A DNA stretch of 64,000 nucleotides from Vicinamibacterales bacterium (lineage in GTDB: Bacteria; Acidobacteriota; Vicinamibacteria; Vicinamibacterales; UBA8438): NCBI GenBank assembly GCA_937766455.1, contig CALLXD010000005.1, forward strand, positions 6,364 through 70,363, in the 5' to 3' direction. This document shows positions 21,054-37,867 of this stretch, one piece after another. Position numbers and translations under genes: made by a program. Position 1 is the stretch's first letter. Each line of letters begins with the position of its first letter. The notes below the pieces were generated by a model. It did not search any database, had not been told where the DNA came from, and saw only the letters and a list, made by a program, of their open reading frames with translations.

Positions 21054-22998
21054 TCAGTTCCGAATGTGCGATTCGAGCCAGCTCGACCGGAACAGGCGTT
21101 GCGCTGCCGTGAGCGGCTGGCCGCGGCGTTCTTGGGCGACAAGCGTGAACGTGGGGTCCGCCGCGAGAGTGACCTGAGCCGTTCGCAGGTCACCCCGCCG
21201 TAGATAGCTCAGGCGCAGCTGGTCCCCCGGCTGATGGGTCCTGCGTGCCTCGTCGAGCTGCCTGGCCGAAGAGACTGGCCGGTCATCGATCGACACGAGG
21301 ACATCGTCGCGCTCAAGACCCGCGTCGTATAACGGTGAATCAAACGGAGCGGGTCCGACCAGCCGGGCACCCTCCCGACCGAACCGGAGCGACGTGTCCC
21401 CGAGCCATCCTCCGCGTCCGGTCGTTGGAGCCAGGATGAAGCCGGCGCGCGCCAACAGCGGGGCGTAGTCGACGGCCTCGTGACCCTCCACGAACCGGTC
21501 AAAGAAGTCGTCGGCGAAGGTGGCGTCGCCGGTCAGATCGGCCAGCGCGATGCGGGCGTCGGCCTGGGCATAGGGACGTGCGACCACGCCAGGCGTGTCG
21601 CCGCTGGGGCGGCCAAACCGTTCCCACAGCAGTCGCATGTAGTCGTCGAGCGTCACGGCCGGGGCGTCTCCGTCGGCGGCACGGGCCCGCAACAGCAGGT
21701 CCAGTCCCAACCCAAGCGCTTCGCCCCAGGTGTAGTACGAGATAAACAGGTTGTTCCAGTTGGTTCGGTCGATGGCGGTTGCGGCATCGGTAAACGGGGC
21801 CAACCGGCTCATATCGACAGCCGAACGGAATTGCCGGCCCGGCCCTCGCCTCACCGTGTCGATGACAGACAGGAACCGGTTCAGCGTGTCCGCGAGCGGA
21901 ACCAGGCCAGCCCGCTTCAGAATCAGTGCTCCGTAGTAGTTCGTGAAGCCTTCGGCGAGCCACAACTCGTCCGAGGGATTCACGCGCTCAAAATCGAAGG
22001 GCTCGAGCGAGCGCGGTCTGATGCGCTCGACATTCCACACGTGAAAAAACTCATGCGAGGCGGAACCCAGGAGTCCACGCTGTTGCGTATCCAGCGACGC
22101 CGGTGAGCTCAACACGGTGCTGTTGCGGTGCTCCATCGCGTCGCCGTTGGCCCCCGCTAGATAGTCGGCAATAAACGTGTAGCGCCCAGTCTCGAATCGA
22201 GGGAATTCACCAAAGACGGTCACCATTTCGCGCACCATCCGCTCGATGTTGTCGGTGTAACGAGCGAGATCTGCGTCGGAGCCTTCGTGATGTAAGGCGA
22301 TACGAAACCTGGGGACGTGGTTCGCGTCAGACGGGTCAATGACGGTGAACGAGCGGTCCACGAAGGCGCTGAACTCGACGGGGCTATCAAGCAGATAGGC
22401 CAGGTTCGGGGCCGTGAATGTCAAAGGATCGTCCGACGGGAACAGCTGGGTCGCAACCCGCCACGCCTGTCCTGGAGGCGATACGAACCGCACGGTCGTG
22501 GGGCGCTGCTCGACCCCGACACCCCAGAGAATGGAGGCCGGCATGTTCATGTGGGCGTGGGTCTCATCGATGGCGAGGTAGGTCCCATCGATGCGGTCAC
22601 CGTAGATCCGGTAGGTGACGTGCACCGTCCTGTCGTGGCCGTCGATGTCCCAGCGGGCCATCCCGGACCGCATCGGATCGAGAGCGTCCCCCGCTCCATC
22701 CTCAGCCCGGAGGTCAAAGACGTTCTTGGCGAAGTCGTGGCGCGCATACCGTCCCGGTGACGCGCTACTCATCCTCAGACTCAGCGCCGCCGGAGGAAGC
22801 CCGGTGAAGGTGATGGCGACCTGCATCCAACGATGTTCCGGTTCAGGAAAAACGGAACTCATACGAGACTGACGGGTCGTCGGTCCCGCTCAGGGGCTGA
22901 GCACCCCTTGCGTGGATGGCCCAGGCGCCGCCAAGCACCAGCAGCAGCACCGCCGCCCCGCCTTGAAGTGCCGCCGCCGTATGCGGTCGGGAGGTCAT
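21054..22998 (-). CDS. M61 glycyl-aminopeptidase-family metallopeptidase with PDZ domain; apparent +1 frameshift in A5 run 22848-22852
   Basis: SSASPGRYA, AMEHRNST, HEFFHVWN, LWLAEGFTNYY, C-terminal PDZ; signal peptide MTSRPHT...AVLLLVLGGAWA in upstream frame joins as YEFRFPEPEH. Confidence 0.88.
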
Positions 22999-23629
22999 GC
23001 GATCGATTCAAGCACGTGCCCGACCGAATGACGCCTCTGATTCGGCTCCGAGGATCTCGACCCGGTCGTTGACGACGGTTTTTGGTACTCCCGTCCACGC
23101 GGTACTGGCGCACGAGATCCGGATACTCGATTGCCGCCACTGCGGACGCCGTGATGTGTGCATTCTCTAGCGCCAGGCGATGGGCAAGGCTGACCGCCTT
23201 GGGGCAGTGTGGTCAGGTTGGCGTCGCAAACACCTGGATGTGGATCGGTTGGTCCACTGTCGCGACGAGCGCCCGGCTCTCGTCGCTCAACCCCGAGTCG
23301 CCGGAGGCCACCAGCGCGATCGCCTCGACGAGTGACACCAGCTCGTGGCCCTCTGGCACTCCGTAGAAGCGAATTCCGACATCCGACTCGCCGACCACGG
23401 CAATGGCGGGCACGCGTTGTATGCCATAGGCCTCGACCTGATCGGTGTCGAGGACCAGATTGAACTCTTCGACCGTGATCTGGTCGGAGACCGACGCGAC
23501 GCGGTCCACGACCTGTCGCGCGGACAGACAGGAGTCGCAACCGAATGTTTGGGTAAAGAACACCAGCCTCACCGGGGCATCAAGGCCGGCCAGCGTCGCT
23601 TCGAGGTCGTCCGGGGTGCGAGCATTCAT
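22995..23629 (-). CDS. Two-domain protein-disulfide oxidoreductase (PDO/AhpF-NTD-like), probable selenoprotein (UGA at 23213-23215); two further +1 shifts near 23090 and 23020
   Basis: CDSC and VP in domain 1; FATPT-UGA-PHCPKAVSLAHRLALEN...EYPDLVRQYRVDG continues in frame; corrected end VPKTVVNDRVEILGA...VLESIA with ATGA overlap to M61 gene. Confidence 0.82.
23185..23201 (-). promoter_or_regulatory. Putative bacterial SECIS hairpin
   Basis: mRNA CAAGGC-GGUCA-GCCUUG; loop starts 17 nt after UGA and begins with GGU. Confidence 0.65.
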
Positions 23630-23677
23630 GGCGCAATTATCGCAGGTGCGGCAACCGGTCGCCACCGGGCCGGCGTT

Positions 23678-24133
23678 CTACTTGAACAGGTCGTCAAACT
23701 TGTCTTTCACGCTCCGCACACCGCGCACCGAGCCGGTTACCTCCGAATGGGTCTGGCGCTCGACCGTGACCCGAGGTTCGAACCGGTCACACTGATTCCG
23801 CACATCCTTGGGAGAGACCCGGACGGGAATCGGCTGCATGCATTCGAAATGGCTGCCGCCGTCGAAGGACGCGCACTGCCCGCATGTGCGCAGGTCGGCG
23901 TCGCAACCTGGGCAGGTCGACTCAGGTCCGATCACCAGCGACAGTGTATTCCCGCAGCGCGCGCACCGGACGACATCGTGAAAACCCGGCATGTTGGGCG
24001 TCCGATGCTCGCGGTTGATAACGCCGCGCGGTGCGCCCTCACGGGGGGCCTTGGGTTTCGGGCCGCGAGACGTCCGCTCCCGGTCCCGGTCGTCGTCCTG
24101 GTAACCGCGCTGCTGGTATTTCCGGTCGCTCAT
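23678..24133 (-). CDS. Cys-rich (zinc-ribbon-like) hypothetical protein
   Basis: MSDRKYQQRGYQD; CARC, CPGC, CGQC plus two more Cys; ends FDDLFK. Confidence 0.75.
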   Translation of the reverse strand: MSDRKYQQRGYQDDDRDRERTSRGPKPKAPREGAPRGVINREHRTPNMPGFHDVVRCARCGNTLSLVIGPESTCPGCDADLRTCGQCASFDGGSHFECMQPIPVRVSPKDVRNQCDRFEPRVTVERQTHSEVTGSVRGVRSVKDKFDDLFK

Positions 24134-24204
24134 GACTTGGTTCCCGAGTGCCGTGCCAGAGGCTGGTCGCCGCCCGGCGGGTTCAGTCGGTCGAGCAGAC
24201 CCTC

Positions 24205-24729
24205 TTAGTGCGGGTAGCCCGCAAGCCGCGGTTTGCCGGGCTGCCAATCCGGTACGCGAGCGAAGGCGTCACGGTTGGGCATCTCGATCGCGGGCAGACT
24301 CTCGGCGTCGAGGACGGTCTCCTCCGCAATGACGTCGTTTATGAATAGCAGATAGGCGGTGAGCGCGTAGACCTGATCGGCCGTGAGCGTCCCCTCTCGA
24401 TTGAGGGGCATGCCACGATTGATGTAGTCCCAGACCACGGTGGCGTATGGCGCGCGAATCGGGAGAATTCTTCCGAAGTCCCACGGGTGGTCCGGCTGGA
24501 CGTCGCGTTTGACCAGCCGGGGCCCGCTACCTCCGCTCGCGTCCGCTCCGTGGCACGACGCGCACTGTCTCCGATAGACGAGCCGGCCTTCCTCAGACGT
24601 GCCCTGCCCCGGCGGAAGCTCCTCTCCCGTGGGGCTGATGGAGATGTCCCAGGCTCGAATTTCCTCTTCAGTCGGCGTCCGTCCGACACCCGTGGGCCCC
24701 TGCGCCAGGGCGTTCGTGCCCAGGAGCAT
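24205..24729 (-). CDS. Monoheme cytochrome c, SoxD-like (start uncertain, may be slightly upstream)
   Basis: GVGRTPTEEEIRAWDI, LPPGQG, CASCHG, PYATVVWDYINRGMP, MPNRDAF. Confidence 0.85.
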   Translation of the reverse strand: MLLGTNALAQGPTGVGRTPTEEEIRAWDISISPTGEELPPGQGTSEEGRLVYRRQCASCHGADASGGSGPRLVKRDVQPDHPWDFGRILPIRAPYATVVWDYINRGMPLNREGTLTADQVYALTAYLLFINDVIAEETVLDAESLPAIEMPNRDAFARVPDWQPGKPRLAGYPH

Positions 24730-24892
24730 GAACACCGCGAAAACCCCCAGGACACGGACGAATTGCGAACACGTCGTCGCACTACTCGGTGTTCTGGCGA
24801 GGCGTTCGCCTGGCAAGGCGCGACGAGGGAGCAGCCAGGCGGGCTGTGACCGAGGAAGCAACGCAGTCCAGGCGGGCGCCTCGCCAGAACAC

Positions 24893-26130
24893 CTACGTGA
24901 TTGCATTCTGCACGCTCCCGTCGCTCGCGATGTGCCACGGCTGAATGGAATTGTCCATGTCCGGGCACACCGCGCGAGTCGAAGAACTCGGTGATCTGGC
25001 CGCGTGCCGGCTGCACCTGGCCGATGTCGTCCGTGCTGCGTGACAGCAGCTCGGCCTCGTTTCCATCCCAGTTCCACTGGAACGTGAACCGCGTGTGCGC
25101 CATGCGGTGGGCCGTGCCCTGAATCTGGGCGTCCGCCCAGCTCCGGCCGCCGTCGGTGGAGACCTCCACCCGGCCAATGGCGCCCCCACCGGACCACGCC
25201 AGGCCGCTGATCTCGTAGGCCCCGCGGTCAGGCAACTGCTGTCCCCCGGACGGAGAGGTGATGACCGATTTCGGTCCGATCTGGTACCCCAGCGCCGCGG
25301 TATCCGGGTCTCGGGTGAGATGCCCAAAATCGTTGTAGGTCATGTAGTACCGGTCCACGATCTTTGACGCGCCGGAGATACTTCGAGTTGAAGATGCCTT
25401 CGAAGCCGGGCACCAGCAGTCGCAGCGGAAACCCATTCTGGGGACGCACCGCCTCGCCGTTCATGCCGTAGGCCACGACACAATCGTCCATCGCCTTCTC
25501 GATCGGGATGCTGGACGCGCCCTTCACTTCCTCGACCCCCTCCGCGACCATCCACTTCCCGGTGCCCTTCACGCCCGTTTCCTTCAGCAGAGTGGACAGG
25601 AGCACCCCGGTCCATTCCGCACAACTGGTCATCCCGTGTGTTTCCTGCACCGTCTTGTGCTGCGACCTCGAACGGTTGCCCGCGCACTCGATGAAATGCG
25701 GCCGGGTCACCGAGGGGAGGCGCTTCAAGTCCTCCATGGTGAAGACCAGCGGCCGGTCCACCAGCCCGTGGATCAGGAGCCGGTGTTCCCGTGGGTCGAT
25801 CTCCGGCACGAAGGAGCCGCGCGTGGTTCCGATGAAGTGGAGCGACGATGGCGTGATCATCCCCACCGAATCCTGCAGCGGCGCCGCGATATGGAAGAGC
25901 TTCCCAAACGCATCGGGTGAGGGTCTGCTGTCTGGCGGGTGCGCGATGCGGACCGAGTTCACGAAACGAGAGCGCGAGCCGTACGCGACCAGTTCGTCCG
26001 TGCCCTTGATGAAGGTCTCGGGGTTCGGCAGTTGGCCCAGCGCCGGCTCCGCAGCCCCCAAGGTCAGGCCACCGGCCAAGGCGGCGCTGCCTTTAAGGAA
26101 TCCTCTTCGATCAGGTCGTGTCGAACCCAT
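24893..26130 (-). CDS. Tat-exported sulfite-oxidase-family molybdoenzyme, SoxC-like; two apparent +1 frameshifts (~25363, ~24962)
   Basis: RRGFLK Tat motif, GMITPSSLHF, FIECAGN (Mo-Cys), SCAEWTGV, GFPLRLLVPGFEG; next frame KSVITSPSGG, ISGLAWSG, VEVSTDGG; final frame NSIQPWHIASDGSVQN. Confidence 0.85.
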
Positions 26131-26280
26131 GGTCTCTCCTCTTCGCGAATCAGATCGCCTCGCGTCGTGTCCCGGTGGTCCGAGTATAAGCCCATGGCGC
26201 GGCAAAAAGGGCCACGACCACGCCGCGCGGGACGGAGCGGGACCTGTCGTCCCGGCCAGACGACTGGCCGGTCCAGGTTC

Positions 26281-26340
26281 AATCGAGGGTTGAATCGAGG
26301 GCCGAATTGAGGGCCGAATTGAGGGCCGCACTCGAGGGTC
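26281..26340. repeat. 12-bp tandem repeat (4 copies plus 1 degenerate) in divergent intergenic region
   Basis: AATCGAGGGTTG, AATCGAGGGCCG, AATTGAGGGCCG, AATTGAGGGCCG, then CACTCGAGGGTC. Confidence 0.85.
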
Positions 26341-26387
26341 CAAAAAGAGGACCGAGATCGACCAAGATGTAGTCGAACCGACGAGCC

Positions 26388-27326
26388 ATGACCGAAAACC
26401 TCGGCCGCCTCGACCGCTACCTCCTGTCCCTCCCCGAGCGCACGGTGCGCGCCGCGACCGCCGCCACCGCGGGCCTCCTCCGCGAGCTCGGTGACGCCGC
26501 GCTCCCGAAGGCCCTCCGGCGCACCAACCTCTACCGCACCATGGTCGAAGGGACGCTGCGTTTCCTCATCGAGACCGTGGGCGAGGTGGATGGGACGTTC
26601 CCGCACGCTGGCAAGCCCGGCGAGGATTTTCTGTTGCGGCGCGCCGCCGGCAATGGCATCGAGATGGCCGGCATCCTGGCGTTTCGGGCGTCTCCGGTGT
26701 GGGTGCTCGCGGCGCTGGCGGACGTGTCCGGGGCCAGCCGCATGTTGATCCGGGAGATCGCGGACTCTCTAAAAGACGAGGGGCTGCTTGATCCTGATGC
26801 GGAGTACGAGACCGTGGACCACGTCCTCGCCGGGCTGGAACTGGCGTCGGGTCGGGTTGCCGAGGCCGTGAACACGCCGCCGCTGGACGTCGCCGGGCTA
26901 CGCCGGGAATGGCGGGAGATCGAAGCACGCGTGCGCTCGATCCCGCCCGAGCGGATGCCCGCCGCCGACCGCCTCTGGGAGGGTTGGCGAGAGCTGCGCG
27001 CTGAAGCCGAGGCGCAAGGGCGTTCGGTATTTCAGATGTCTTCTCTCATGGCGGTCTCGGCTCTGGGTGCGTTGCCGGCCGGCGTGCGCTGGCTGTCGCT
27101 GAGTGCCGCCACCGCGGCGAAGAGCACCAGTGACATCTTCGCCGACGCGCTACTCGATCACTATCGCGACACGCTCGTGGAGGTCCGCCGCGTCGGCGTC
27201 ATCGCGTACTGGCGCGGCCAGTTCGAGCCCTACTTGCGTGCTGCGGCAAAGCAATTCTCGCCGGGGCGGCGCAGCTTGACTGAGCGGCTCTTGGATCGAC
27301 GGAATTCGGGGCCGCCCGCGCGATAG
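26388..27326 (+). CDS. Hypothetical helical protein
   Basis: 312-aa ORF with GC3-biased codons; YLLSLPERTVR, SPVWVLAALAD; no family recognised. Confidence 0.7.
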   Translation: MTENLGRLDRYLLSLPERTVRAATAATAGLLRELGDAALPKALRRTNLYRTMVEGTLRFLIETVGEVDGTFPHAGKPGEDFLLRRAAGNGIEMAGILAFRASPVWVLAALADVSGASRMLIREIADSLKDEGLLDPDAEYETVDHVLAGLELASGRVAEAVNTPPLDVAGLRREWREIEARVRSIPPERMPAADRLWEGWRELRAEAEAQGRSVFQMSSLMAVSALGALPAGVRWLSLSAATAAKSTSDIFADALLDHYRDTLVEVRRVGVIAYWRGQFEPYLRAAAKQFSPGRRSLTERLLDRRNSGPPAR

Positions 27327-32821: not shown

Positions 32822-33988
32822 ATGTTTTCGGTTCGGGTTCCCGGTGTTGGCTCGAATCGCGTGGCGCGCGTGCTGGCCGCCCATCGAGCGCGAGCCCGAA
32901 CGCTTGACGACCTGACGGTGTCGAATCCGACCCGGGTCGGTTTGTCGTATCCTCCGAGCCTCCTCCAGCCGCTGGCTGACCCGGCGGGGCTCCGCTACGA
33001 TCCGGCCCCGTTCGGGATGCCTGCGGCGCGTGACGCGGTGGCGTCCCACCTCTCAGACCGCGGCATCTCTGTTGCCCCTGATCGCGTCGTGCTCACTGCG
33101 AGTACGAGTGAAGCCTACTCGTTGTTATTCAAGTTGCTCTGCGACCCCCGGGACGTGGTTCTTGTCCCGCAACCAAGCTACCCGCTGTTCGAGCACCTCA
33201 CCCGGTTGGAAGGGGTGGTCGCGAGCCCGTATCTGTTGGAGTATCACGGACGCTGGGAGCTGAACGTGGAGAGCGTCGAGCGCGCGATCGAGCCGCGGGC
33301 GAGAGCTATCTTGTTCGTGAATCCCAACAACCCGACGGGGTCGTTTGTGCGACCCACCGAGTTGGAGGCGGTGCGCGAGGTCGCGGCGAAGCACGAGCTC
33401 GCCCTCATCAGTGACGAGGTCTTCGACCTGTACCCGTTCGATGACCAGGCGAGGGGGACGGCCGGGGCCCTGGTGTCGGAACCGGACGTACTCACGTTCA
33501 CGCTAGGAGGGCTGTCGAAGACGGCCCTCTTGCCGCAGCTGAAACTCGGGTGGATACTGGTCGGTGGGCCTCACACGCTCGTACATCGGGCGCTCGATCG
33601 GCTCGAATTCATCAGTGATACTTATCTGTCGGTGGCCAGCCCGGTGCAGGGCGCGGTCGGTGCGCTCCTGAAACACACACGGCCCTTGACGGCCCAGGTG
33701 TGCCGCCGGGTCAGAGCCAATATGGCGACTCTCCGCGGCCTCGTGGTGCAGTTTCCAGCTTGCCAGGTCCTCCACGCGGAAGCTGGGTGGTACGCTGTCG
33801 TGCAGGTGCCCGCGACACGTTCCGAGGAGGCGCTGGTCATCGAACTCATAGAGAAGGACGGCGTCCTGGTGCACCCCGGCTACTTCTTCGACTTTCCCCG
33901 CGAGGCGTTCCTGGTGGTGAGCCTGCTTCCGGAACCCGAACCGTTCGCGAGCGCCATGACCCGGGTGCTGTCCCGAGCTTCCGGATGA
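32822..33988 (+). CDS. PLP-dependent aminotransferase class I/II
   Basis: STSEAYS, NPNNPTG, SDEVF, GGLSK...QLKLGW, VHPGYFFD. Confidence 0.88.
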   Translation: MFSVRVPGVGSNRVARVLAAHRARARTLDDLTVSNPTRVGLSYPPSLLQPLADPAGLRYDPAPFGMPAARDAVASHLSDRGISVAPDRVVLTASTSEAYSLLFKLLCDPRDVVLVPQPSYPLFEHLTRLEGVVASPYLLEYHGRWELNVESVERAIEPRARAILFVNPNNPTGSFVRPTELEAVREVAAKHELALISDEVFDLYPFDDQARGTAGALVSEPDVLTFTLGGLSKTALLPQLKLGWILVGGPHTLVHRALDRLEFISDTYLSVASPVQGAVGALLKHTRPLTAQVCRRVRANMATLRGLVVQFPACQVLHAEAGWYAVVQVPATRSEEALVIELIEKDGVLVHPGYFFDFPREAFLVVSLLPEPEPFASAMTRVLSRASG

Positions 33989-36282
33989 ACAATCAGCCGG
34001 TGCCGGTCGTGAAGGACCTCGTCCTGATCGGCGGGGGGCACACGCATGTCAGCGTGCTGAGGCGGTTCGGGATGCGTCCGCTTGCCGGCGTCCGGCTGAC
34101 CCTGATCACCCGAGACGTGCACACGCCGTATTCCGGCATGTTGCCGGGCCTGGTTTCAGGTCACTACGACTTCGACGATGTGCATATCGACTTGGGGCCA
34201 TTGAGTCGATTCGCCGACGCGAGGCTGTTTCATCAGCCTGTGACGGGACTCGACCTGGAGCGTCAGCACGTCTTGTGCGACGGACGGCCGCCGGTGCCGT
34301 ACGACCTGTTGTCCCTGAACATCGGTTCGACACCCTCTTTCGGTGGCGTGCCGGGGGCGGCGGAGGTCGTGGTACCGGTCAAGCCGATCAGCCGGTTTGT
34401 GCCACGGTGGGAGCGGATACGGGCTCGCGTGTCAGCCTCGAAAGCGCCGATCCGTATCGGCGTGGTGGGTGCTGGCGCCGGTGGAGTCGAGTTGACGCTG
34501 GCCGTCGAGCACGCGCTCCGGCATGCCTGCCAGGCGTCAGGCGGGTCAGACGATACCGTCGAGGTGCACTTATTCGGTGCCAACCGTACCATCCTGTCCA
34601 CCCACAATCGCGGCATGCGGCGGCGACTGGAGCGGGCGCTACGCGAACGCTGCGTGCACCTCCATCTGGGGCAAAGCGTGTCCGCCGTGGCTGAAGGACA
34701 GCTCACCCTGGCCGACGGCAGCACCGTGGCGGTCGACGAAATCCTCTGGGTGACGCAGGCAGGAGCGGCCCCGTGGTTGGCCGAGTCCGGGCTCGACGTC
34801 GACGAGCACGGGTTTGTCCGCGTCGACGATACCCTCCAGTCGTGTTCGCATCCCGGGGTGTTTGCCGCCGGCGATGTGGCGGCAGTGGTCAATCATCCGC
34901 GTGAGAAGGCGGGGGTGTTCGCGGTGCGCCAGGGACCACCGCTGGCCGAGAATCTGCGACGGGCATTGCTTGGTCGACGCCTTCGGCCGTTTCGTCCCCA
35001 GAAACGATTCCTGACCCTGGTCTCGACCGGCGGTCGCCATGCCGTCGGGTCCCGCGGGTGGTGGTCGTTCGAGGGCGATCTCGTGTGGCGGTGGAAAGAT
35101 TGGATCGACCGCCGTTTCATGTCCCGCTACGCCGATTTGCCTGCCATGTCCGCTGAGGCCCCACCGGCGCTGGAGCCGGGTCTCGCCTCGTCAGAGGCGC
35201 TGCGCGAAATCTCGACGGCCGCCATGCGCTGCGGCGGCTGTGGGTCGAAAGTGGGAGCGACCCCGCTCACCCGCGTGCTCGAACAGCTGGCACCGATACG
35301 GCGAGATGACGTACTCATCGGGCTCGATGCGCCAGATGACGCGGCCGTCGTCTCAGTGCCGCCGGGTAAGGTGCTGGTGCGTACGGTGGATGCGTTTCGA
35401 GCCATCGTGAATGACCCGTTTGTTTTCGGTCAGATCACGGCCAACCACTGCCTCGGCGACATCTTCGCGATGGGCGCAGAAGCCCAGACGGCACTGGCGG
35501 TGGCGACGGTGCCGTTCGGACTCGACCGGAAGGTCGAAGACACCTTGGTGCAACTGCTGTCGGGAGCAGTCCAGGTCCTCAATGACGCCGGAGCGGCGTT
35601 GGTGGGAGGACATACCAGTGAAGGCGTCGAGTTGTCGCTCGGCCTGTCGTTGACCGGGTTGGTCGACCGCGACGCGGTGCTCCGCAAGGGCGGCCTTCGA
35701 GCCGGCGACCGCCTGGTGCTGACGAAAGGGATCGGCACCGGCACGCTGTTCGCGGCTGAGATGCGCATGCGAGCCAAGGGCCGGTGGATTGACGGGGCGA
35801 TTGCAGCCATGCGGCAGTCGAGCCGCGCCGCGGCCGATGTGCTGCGCCGTCACCAGGCCAGCGCCTGCACCGATGTCACCGGGTTCGGGCTATTAGGACA
35901 TCTGGTGGAAATGACCAGAGCGTCCGGCGTGGACGTTCGACTCGATCTGCCCGCGGTGCCGGTGCTGGACGGCGCGCTCGAGACGAGTGCCGCCGGGTTT
36001 CTCAGTTCCCTCCATCCGCACAATGTGCGGCTCCGGCGCGCCGTTGCCGACATCGAGCGCGTGAGCGCCGACCCGCGGTATACGTTGCTGTACGACCCGC
36101 AGACCTCCGGTGGGCTCCTGGCCGGCGTTCCAGCAGACCGAGCGCAGGCTTGCGTCGATGACCTGCTCGCGAACGGCTATCATCAGGCCGCCATCATCGG
36201 TACCGTCGAGCCTCGACGCGAGGACGATCCCGGTACCTCACGGGAGCACGACGCTCCGATTCATATCGAAGGAGTTGCATGA
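33985..36282 (+). CDS. selD: Selenide,water dikinase SelD fused to N-terminal FAD/NAD(P)H pyridine-nucleotide-disulfide oxidoreductase
   Basis: GGGHTH, GAGAGGVE, FAAGD; then RCGGCGSKVG, DDAA, DIFAMGA, GGHT, TDVTGFGLLGH, DPQTSGGLL; ATGA overlap with aminotransferase. Confidence 0.93.
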   Translation: MNNQPVPVVKDLVLIGGGHTHVSVLRRFGMRPLAGVRLTLITRDVHTPYSGMLPGLVSGHYDFDDVHIDLGPLSRFADARLFHQPVTGLDLERQHVLCDGRPPVPYDLLSLNIGSTPSFGGVPGAAEVVVPVKPISRFVPRWERIRARVSASKAPIRIGVVGAGAGGVELTLAVEHALRHACQASGGSDDTVEVHLFGANRTILSTHNRGMRRRLERALRERCVHLHLGQSVSAVAEGQLTLADGSTVAVDEILWVTQAGAAPWLAESGLDVDEHGFVRVDDTLQSCSHPGVFAAGDVAAVVNHPREKAGVFAVRQGPPLAENLRRALLGRRLRPFRPQKRFLTLVSTGGRHAVGSRGWWSFEGDLVWRWKDWIDRRFMSRYADLPAMSAEAPPALEPGLASSEALREISTAAMRCGGCGSKVGATPLTRVLEQLAPIRRDDVLIGLDAPDDAAVVSVPPGKVLVRTVDAFRAIVNDPFVFGQITANHCLGDIFAMGAEAQTALAVATVPFGLDRKVEDTLVQLLSGAVQVLNDAGAALVGGHTSEGVELSLGLSLTGLVDRDAVLRKGGLRAGDRLVLTKGIGTGTLFAAEMRMRAKGRWIDGAIAAMRQSSRAAADVLRRHQASACTDVTGFGLLGHLVEMTRASGVDVRLDLPAVPVLDGALETSAAGFLSSLHPHNVRLRRAVADIERVSADPRYTLLYDPQTSGGLLAGVPADRAQACVDDLLANGYHQAAIIGTVEPRREDDPGTSREHDAPIHIEGVA

Positions 36283-36325
36283 TCGCCGGAGACCTCATGG
36301 GGCGGTGGGTGAGCGAGCCACGCGG

Positions 36326-37867
36326 ATGACTGACGACATCAAGGACGAGCCGTCGACCGCGCCCGAAGAAGCGGGCAACGTGCCGATTCGGGCGCCGGAG
36401 CTGGTCGGCGCCGTGGACTGGCTGAACGTCACGGCACCGCTGACACTGTCGGCGCTCCGCGGCAAGATCGTGTTGCTCGAGTTCTGGACCTACGGGTGCA
36501 TCAACTGCCTGCATCAATTGTCGGGGCTCAAGCGGCTCGCCGCGGCGCACACGGACCACCTGGTGGTCATCGGTATCCACTCGCCCAAGTTTCCCAACGA
36601 GCGAAGTACGGAAAACCTGCGCCAGATCGTCGCGCGACACGATATTACGCATCCCGTGGCGAATGATGCGGATTTTCGCATCTGGCGGGAATACACCGTC
36701 CGGGCGTGGCCCACGCTGGCGCTGATCGACCCGGCCGGATATCTGGTGGGTGGCGCGTCAGGCGAAGGGCATCTGCCGCAGTTTGAGCAGGCGATCACCG
36801 CCGTGGCGCAGGTGTTCAAGGACCGCGGGGCGCTTCGGGCTGGACCACAGGCCGAGGTGCGGCCCGAGGCGGCGGTGCCATCGGACGGGCTGGCGTTTCC
36901 GGGCAAGGTGGCGGTCGATACCGAGCGGGATCGCGTGTTCGTGGCAGACACCTGTCACGACCAGATTGTGGTCGCGACGTTGGCGGGTATCCCGATCGCG
37001 CGGATTGGCGCCGGCCATTCGGGCGCCGACGACGGGTCCTTCGCGGAGGCGTGCTTTGCACGCCCCCAGGGGATGGCGGTGCGTCCGGAAGATGGCTGTC
37101 TCCTGGTGGCTGATACCGGCAATCACCTGATTCGTGAGGTAGACGTCGACGCAGCCCGGGTGCGGACCTTGGCCGGGAACACGGACCAAGCCCGGCGCGG
37201 CGCAGCGGGGGGCGGTGCGGTGACGACATCGATCAGTTCGCCTTGGGACCTGGCGCAGATCGGTCAGCTGCTGTTCATTGCGATGGCGGGCGTGCATCAA
37301 CTGTGGGTGCTGGACGCCGAGCGGGGGTTCCTGTTTCCGTACGCCGGGTCTGGCCTCGAGGCACGTCAGGACGGGGGGCTCGACGACAGCGCGTTCGCTC
37401 AGCCGTCCGGTTTGGCCTGGCACGAGGACACGCTGTTTGTTGCCGATAGCGAGTCGAACGTGATTCGCGCCGTCGATCTGCCCCCGGTGAACAGCGTCCG
37501 TACGCTCGCCGGTGGCGACCTGTTCGAGTTTGGCGATACCGACGGTGTGGGTGATGCGGTGCGGTTGCAACATCCCCTGGCGGTCGCGTACCACGACGGC
37601 GCGCTCTATGTGTCAGACACCTACAACCACCGCATCAAACGACTGGATCTCGGGACCCGCCGAGTCACCGCCTTTGCCGGTTCCGGCAAGCCCGGGCTGC
37701 GAGACGGGCGCGGTGCGCGCGCCCGGTTCTACGAGCCCGGGGGACTGGCGGTGGCGGACGGACGCCTCCTCGTGGCCGATACGAACAACCATGCCCTGCG
37801 CGCGGTGGATCTGAACTCCGGCGTGGTCTCCACCGTCATTGGTCCACACTCCCCGCTCGTGGTGTGA
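36326..37867 (+). CDS. Thioredoxin-like + NHL-repeat protein (NHLRC2/SOQ1-like)
   Basis: EFWTYGCINC, IHSPKFPNE, RAWPT; repeated ADT.NH NHL blades. Confidence 0.9.
   Translation: MTDDIKDEPSTAPEEAGNVPIRAPELVGAVDWLNVTAPLTLSALRGKIVLLEFWTYGCINCLHQLSGLKRLAAAHTDHLVVIGIHSPKFPNERSTENLRQIVARHDITHPVANDADFRIWREYTVRAWPTLALIDPAGYLVGGASGEGHLPQFEQAITAVAQVFKDRGALRAGPQAEVRPEAAVPSDGLAFPGKVAVDTERDRVFVADTCHDQIVVATLAGIPIARIGAGHSGADDGSFAEACFARPQGMAVRPEDGCLLVADTGNHLIREVDVDAARVRTLAGNTDQARRGAAGGGAVTTSISSPWDLAQIGQLLFIAMAGVHQLWVLDAERGFLFPYAGSGLEARQDGGLDDSAFAQPSGLAWHEDTLFVADSESNVIRAVDLPPVNSVRTLAGGDLFEFGDTDGVGDAVRLQHPLAVAYHDGALYVSDTYNHRIKRLDLGTRRVTAFAGSGKPGLRDGRGARARFYEPGGLAVADGRLLVADTNNHALRAVDLNSGVVSTVIGPHSPLVV

Follow-up and report, generated by a model that had tools for sequence, protein, structure and literature searches.

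A predicted selenocysteine-containing protein disulfide oxidoreductase gene, with a candidate SECIS hairpin, in a marine member of the Vicinamibacteria

Introduction

The protein disulfide oxidoreductase (PDO) of Pyrococcus furiosus (PfPDO; PDB 1a8l) and its solved relatives (1j08, 2ywm, 2ayt, and 2hls) come from hyperthermophiles and consist of two thioredoxin-fold units, each with a CxxC motif. This two-unit fold is also that of the AhpF N-terminal domain (PDB 1zyn and 1hyu), whose redox-active CxxC lies in the second unit; in AhpF, a FAD/NAD(P)H thioredoxin-reductase-like part is fused to the domain (about 520 amino acids [aa] in total). In the thioredoxin fold, the residue at the first Cys of the CxxC is the attacking one. 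Here, we describe a gene of this kind on the minus strand of a 64,000-nucleotide (nt) stretch of DNA from a Vicinamibacterales bacterium (assembly GCA_937766455.1, contig CALLXD010000005.1, positions 6,364 to 70,363; hereafter, the window). Its predicted product likewise has two thioredoxin-fold units with a CxxC each, but an in-frame UGA codon, which we propose to be read as selenocysteine (Sec, U), stands at the first position of the second motif, so that the protein has UPHC where PfPDO and its solved relatives have CPYC. Unlike AhpF, it has no fused reductase part, and unlike the hyperthermophile proteins, it belongs to the metagenome-derived genome of a marine mesophile, the habitat being taken from run labels.

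The window gene adds a member to an already known selenoprotein family, and Sec use in that family is not new. The family PDO_seleno_TRX has been listed among selenoproteins since 2006 (PMC1794560, Tables 1 and 3) and also appears in tables of PMC9312934 and PMC13188914, Asgard archaea included. Those tables bear out what an earlier reading of the window, made by a model from the letters alone (hereafter, the sequence-only reading), had surmised, namely, that Sec forms occur in other phyla. As tabulated there, the published Sec members share the UxxC motif seen here, in which a single Sec takes the place of the first Cys in the C-terminal CxxC, and they occur in Firmicutes, Symbiobacterium, and Asgard archaea, whereas the window gene is from Acidobacteriota/Vicinamibacteria; for the published member ABB15282.1, the position of Sec is taken from the motif column of the reviews and not from an alignment. 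Two narrow literature searches returned no print record on Sec forms in Vicinamibacteria or under “protein disulfide oxidoreductase.”

A UGA codon at the active site of a two-unit oxidoreductase

The open reading frame (ORF) at 23213..23665 on the minus strand ends in ...IQVFATPT, followed by a TGA at 23213-23215. With this TGA translated as U, the frame runs on through UPHCPKAVSLAHRLALENAHITASAVAAIEYPDLVRQYRV, and the TGA falls on the first Cys position of the second CxxC (TPT-U-PHC). The sequence-only reading had given the same stop, the same placement within the motif, and the same in-frame continuation, all of which were recovered here in coordinates and letters; its span of 22995-23629 corresponds to the gene from ATG through last stop, although the strand (minus) was left unstated. 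The parts of the gene are as follows.

22995..23629, minus strand: whole proposed Sec oxidoreductase gene, 635 nt long in the window copy; without two extra letters, 633 nt (210 codons plus stop)
23636..23641, minus strand: -10-like box GATAAT, 6 nt upstream of the ATG
23627..23629, minus strand: ATG start, with M[DNE].R at this ATG in 13 of the 30 orthologues read
23528..23539, minus strand: first CxxC (C31-D-S-C34), in the N-terminal thioredoxin-fold unit
23213..23215, minus strand: in-frame UGA, codon 139, proposed Sec, first position of UPHC
23204-23215, minus strand: UPHC motif (U139-P-H-C142), the second CxxC
23185..23201, minus strand: candidate SECIS hairpin, with its stem starting 11 nt and its loop 17 nt after the UGA
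23095..23096, minus strand: first extra letter, frame shift after ...QYRV
23024..23025, minus strand: second extra letter, frame shift after ...EASF
22995..22997, minus strand: predicted true stop, also TGA, in frame only without both extra letters

The read-through protein scored 199.7 bits against NCBIfam TIGR02187 (PDO_seleno_TRX, protein disulfide oxidoreductase), for which the cutoff is 185. Profile positions 6-181 were matched in frame 0 and positions 180-202 in the +1 frame, with the last 30 profile positions lying off-frame; Pfam matches in the same protein included Thioredoxin_3, Thioredoxin_9, and others. A profile of 13 orthologues (alignment A1) aligned with PfPDO over positions 7-209 of 211 (E = 1.3e-54) and also matched further PDO or “glutaredoxin-like” structures, while its matches to AhpF N-terminal domains had E values of about 1e-20. 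Judged by these profiles, the gene product is a stand-alone oxidoreductase with two thioredoxin-fold units, in line with the enzyme resembling PDO and the N-terminal domain of AhpF that the sequence-only reading had envisaged.

Evidence that UGA 139 is read as selenocysteine

From sequence evidence, we infer that this is a real Sec gene in which UGA 139 is recoded as Sec, with a probability of roughly 0.9. The codon is retained well beyond the window. Among 40 genomes searched (39 relatives plus the source genome), 34 had a match, and the best match contained a TGA in 30 of these; when 30 loci were read, the TGA stood at the exact CxxC codon in 28, and the other two had Cys (CALC and CVDC). 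A census of these 30 loci plus the best 80 more from named genome records found the motif once in 109 of 110 loci (it was lacking in L086), with TGA at this codon in 65, TGC in 28, and TGT in 16, counts that are biased by the search patterns and by taking the best 80. These loci represent 95 distinct protein contexts (56 U and 39 C). The alternation of UGA and Cys codons among orthologues, which the sequence-only reading had named as a sign to look for, is present (TGA 65 versus TGC/TGT 44). Relative to the closest relative read (L022), the 71 codons past the UGA carry 28 synonymous and 6 nonsynonymous codon changes, a pattern by which the stretch after the UGA is under purifying selection.

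The codon itself was unchanged in metagenome contigs. Logan contigs from four metagenome runs (X1-X4), belonging to four studies and labeled seawater or marine, were compared with the window over 22850-23750, and all carried the TGA, the codon that the sequence-only reading had wanted verified in reads.

The source genome (G000; 3.45 Mb in 78 contigs, 85% complete) encodes the Sec machinery, with selA at 533.9 bits, selB at 344.8, selD at 291, and tRNA-Sec at 66.6, all above their cutoffs, and the tRNA-Sec has the anticodon TCA according to ARAGORN. The sequence-only reading had proposed that selA, selB, and tRNA-Sec be sought in the genome and had already placed selD some 10 kb from the oxidoreductase gene; the first three are indeed encoded there, and the selD gene lies within the window, 10-12 kb away.

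33700..36282, plus strand: SelD with an N-terminal Pyr_redox_2 fusion, an 860-aa ORF with the SelD domain (AIRS, AIRS_C) at 35215-36141

Fusions of Pyr_redox_2 and SelD have been described in the literature. Elsewhere in the genome, three AhpC-TSA (peroxiredoxin [Prx]-like) paralogues have an in-frame TGA within a W-U-PYC motif and probably belong to the known Prx-like thiol:disulfide oxidoreductase selenoprotein family.

C24 (near 7060), C42 (near 44748), and C54 (near 7789): Prx-like W-U-PYC genes, loci L139-L141

If the TGA were a plain stop instead, the gene would encode a 138-residue single-domain thioredoxin-like product or else would be a decaying pseudogene whose downstream similarity is a relic. 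The 138-aa proteins given by gene callers and in public records fit this view, and the window copy is also frame-broken (see below). Such a stop would nevertheless have been kept at this codon across an order, in 28 of the 30 loci read, and purifying selection would have acted on 71 codons behind it (28 synonymous versus 6 nonsynonymous changes against L022); the second CxxC would be without its first residue, the Sec machinery is complete in the genome, and a hairpin that is mostly missing from Cys forms tracks the TGA. We consider this alternative extremely unlikely. Genome-wide reassignment of TGA was rejected as well, because a TGA is the terminal stop of this gene and of most of its orthologues. 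Recoding of UGA 139 as Sec thus remains the preferred reading: what the sequence-only reading had observed is confirmed, and the interpretation that it gave is supported.

A candidate SECIS hairpin downstream of the UGA

Bacterial selenocysteine insertion sequence (SECIS) elements are hairpins just 3' of the UGA whose apical loop has a G among its first positions. In the window gene, CAAGGC (23196-23201) and GCCUUG (23185-23190) can form 6 bp around a GGUCA loop (23191-23195), and the length of the stem as well as the letters of the loop and its spacing, 17 nt past the UGA, are as the sequence-only reading had given them. The SECIS of Escherichia coli fdhF is likewise a short hairpin that starts about 11 nt past the UGA, and its apical loop, as here, is of the GGUC type and contains G and U; a bulged U is a point of difference, none being evident in the window hairpin.

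The hairpin follows the Sec codon across orthologues. In a fixed-register count, with the loop about 17-21 nt past the codon and at least 4 contiguous pairs required, it was found in 54 of 56 Sec forms versus 7 of 39 Cys forms, and the two Sec exceptions (L050 and L123) have a hairpin in a neighboring register. Over the 56 Sec sequences, 86.7% of cells pair, a value that none of 500 shuffles reached (83.8 +/- 0.8%) and that compares with at most 56% in slid controls. Changes on both sides of the stem occur at two pairs (8 cells), for example, from GGC/GCC to GGU/ACC in L031; distinct stems (GGC/GCC, GGU/ACC, GGGC/GUCC, and GGGCG/CGCCU) and distinct loops (GGUCA, GGUC, GUC, and GUG) were observed. 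A Cys form, L072, encodes the same peptide as Sec forms (PHCPRAVSLAH), but its synonymous codons differ from theirs and the hairpin is absent. Taken alone, the hairpin has an energy of -9.1 kcal/mol and is the minimum free energy (MFE) structure of its local 25-nt piece. The three Prx-like genes have GCAGCU-GGUCG-AGCUGC, or a variant with a GUG loop, 20-21 nt past their UGA, and since these hairpins resemble that of the window gene, the presumed SECIS elements of the genome look alike. On this sequence pattern, the hairpin is the candidate SECIS of the gene.

Several observations weigh against this assignment or against the recoding that it would serve. In the MFE structure of a 49-nt piece of the window, UGACC is paired to GGUCA and the hairpin is not formed (z-score, -0.78), the hairpin pair probability in the window's 51-nt context is about 0, and the RNAalifold consensus of the 56 Sec sequences is a different, 3-bp helix. 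A search of Rfam over 22900-23700 at a permissive threshold gave no match other than a chance microRNA (E = 1.7). High conservation of the hairpin sequence leaves modest covariation (8 cells in 2 pairs), and the Sec forms are clustered by phylogeny, so that the contrast between Sec and Cys forms is not one of independent samples. Sec insertion at codon 139, finally, is a prediction from sequence.

A ribosome positioned at the UGA would presumably cover the strands upstream that compete for pairing, leaving the local hairpin as the structure able to form. A bolder and less likely idea, suggested by the folding model, is that pairing of the GGUCA loop with UGACC (the Sec codon and the two bases after it) would act as a switch masking the UGA.

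A generic search for the best hairpin was dropped, as it mostly picked an ACUGCC/GGCGGU helix that is present in Cys forms too and is therefore attributable to the coding sequence. Home-made genome scans for a TGA combined with a hairpin gave a great deal of noise, the genome being GC-rich (40 and 1526 candidates), and the first of them, with 40 candidates, missed the window gene itself.

Two frame breaks near the 3' end of the window copy

The sequence-only reading had described homology continuing in frame past the TGA, which holds as far as ...QYRV; it overlooked two later frame breaks. Beyond ...QYRV, homology to relatives leaves the frame twice, continuing as GVPKTVVNDRVEILGAESEASF in the +1 frame (ORF 23008..23163) and then as VGHVLESIA plus the TGA stop (22995-22997) in the third frame. 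DNA alignment located two single extra letters in the window copy, each a change of G to GG on the gene strand and each absent from all of the closest relatives (9/9). In the same comparison over 22850-23750, the X1-X4 contigs covered 901 bases and differed from the window only by two one-letter deletions (23024 and 23095), with no substituted letter, so that the reading frame, broken twice in the window copy, is intact in the contigs of all four runs. Without the extra letters, the gene has 211 codons, with stops only at codon 139 (TGA) and at the last codon (TGA), and its corrected product is identical to that of L022 at 182 of 210 positions, including 43 of the last 47 columns.

Similar breaks were found elsewhere in the assembly. 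A SorA-like (sulfite-oxidase-like) gene at 24900-26400 on the minus strand, the next gene but one, has three more uncompensated 1-nt indels relative to three same-genus genomes (a base missing near 26130 and extra bases at 25361 and 24957). These indels place its two Pfam domains, Oxidored_molyb and Mo-co_dimer, in two overlapping ORFs (25228-26343 and 24339-25436), and they are probably further assembly errors. In trxB (G000:C46:36901-37799), the match to TIGR01292 is divided into two segments (positions 2-38 and 23-300) whose frames differ, and this split near the N terminus is likely another assembly indel. Within the window, this assembly has five single-base indels in a 3.4-kb stretch.

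The contigs without both letters and the indels in the neighboring gene make it very probable that the two extra letters are assembly errors and that the true product has 210 aa. The alternative is a genuine selenoprotein gene of which this strain's copy is freshly broken, both +1 insertions being real; the C-terminal 47 residues would then be lost, and with them the cis-Pro loop (GVPKT) that belongs to the second thioredoxin fold. Both letters do stand in the assembly of the window, and one other locus (L049, in genome G018) likewise has a frame break, just past UTFCPQ. Against this, the contigs from four studies are identical to the window over 901 bases save for these two letters, two real indels without any accompanying substitution would be odd, and the three indels of the SorA-like gene together with the split trxB form the pattern of an indel-prone assembly. 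The metagenome sequences compared are themselves assemblies, from which rare variants can drop out, so a source strain that truly carries both insertions keeps a small probability. We regard a broken allele as unlikely and retain assembly error as the explanation. The wider consequence is a warning that “pseudogenes” elsewhere in this indel-carrying assembly should not be taken at face value.

The L049 locus is from a one-contig genome of the same family and has one base fewer within the hairpin region, after UTFCPQ.

Truncated and misnamed forms in public records

Public protein records contain the window gene only as a 138-aa truncated form, and its relatives as forms of 138 or 150 aa, which agrees with the expectation of the sequence-only reading that automated annotation splits the gene. 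The truncated proteins are named “hypothetical protein” or “alkyl hydroperoxide reductase subunit AhpF.” The latter name is wrong, because the product scored 61.7 bits against the AhpF family TIGR03140, whose cutoff is 502.9, and has no fused reductase part; AhpF proper was rejected as an identity for the gene on this score and on the length of the product, only 210 aa. Since the records hold only truncated or misnamed forms, the proteomes of this order, which is widespread in soil and sea, lack the catalytic second domain together with its selenocysteine. The practical value of the gene is thus one of annotation; what is known of selenoproteins is unchanged by it.

Distribution of Sec and Cys forms

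The closest named records are metagenome-derived genomes of Vicinamibacteria/Vicinamibacterales (Acidobacteriota), and the metagenome runs holding the stretch are labeled seawater or marine; the organism is a marine member of the Vicinamibacteria, with its habitat taken from those labels. By the sequences compared, the Sec form is the usual form of the gene in the Vicinamibacterales genomes searched.

A quick tree of 100 rows was rooted at its midpoint, with no direction of change claimed and with the frameshifted L049 left out, as it was from alignment A2. All Sec forms fell on the almost wholly Acidobacteriota side of the root except L050, which lay among Cys forms on the other side, and the Acidobacteriota side also includes a few bins that are labeled otherwise. 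Cys was found in Chloroflexota, Calditrichota, Ignavibacteriota, and other forms. The tree needs 9 changes between U and C, at least 7 of which are forced by its starred branches.

A broader proposal is that the Sec form is a core trait of the Vicinamibacterales throughout the order, seawater lineages included, and that repeated switches from Sec to Cys each erased the hairpin. We put this forward tentatively, as possible but somewhat less probable than its contrary. If it is true, public proteomes of the order are systematically without the catalytic half of a main cytoplasmic disulfide reductase, and selenium supply would bear on the redox biology of the Vicinamibacterales. The orthologues also make up a clean natural set of Sec/Cys pairs in which the hairpin is gained or lost.

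Predicted Sec insertion and electron path

The product is predicted to be a 210-residue cytoplasmic protein disulfide oxidoreductase in which Sec139 replaces the attacking Cys of the C-terminal CxxC. For its synthesis, the Pyr_redox_2-fused SelD would make selenophosphate, SelA would convert Ser-tRNA-Sec, and SelB would bring the charged tRNA-Sec to UGA codon 139, held there by the hairpin; the ordinary UGA stop at the end of the gene has no such hairpin. The enzyme would then cycle between a selenenylsulfide and a selenolate/thiol at U139/C142. By analogy with PDO and the AhpF N-terminal domain, electrons may pass from thioredoxin reductase, whose gene is on contig C46, through the oxidoreductase to protein disulfides or peroxiredoxins.

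Upstream region and gene neighborhood

Upstream of the gene, [GC]ATAAT occupies the place of the -10-like box in 13 of the 30 orthologues, and AATAAT and GATACT occupy it in two more. The conserved box, 6 nt from the ATG, leaves no room for a Shine-Dalgarno site between the two, which suggests that the oxidoreductase mRNA is leaderless.

No gene for a redox partner is adjacent to the Sec oxidoreductase gene. Its conserved neighbors are an M61 peptidase gene downstream and, upstream, a Cys-rich ORF.

23678-24247, minus strand: Cys-rich (CxxC-type, zinc-ribbon-like) 189-aa ORF, no Pfam family, ending in ...FDDLFK

At least six orthologous loci (L039, L040, L042, and L044-L046) have this ...FDDLFK ending immediately before the oxidoreductase gene, and the Cys-rich motif of the ORF occurs in the flanks of about ten more. 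The ORF after SelD (36110-37867) encodes a thioredoxin-like/AhpC-TSA protein with NHL repeats. Between the SorA-like gene and a cytochrome c gene lies a dispersed repeat of about 110 nt (24787-24895), with 12 further copies in the source genome among the matches listed and 43-48 matches in each of three same-genus genomes; it may be a small element of this genus resembling a miniature inverted-repeat transposable element (MITE) or a repetitive extragenic palindrome (REP).

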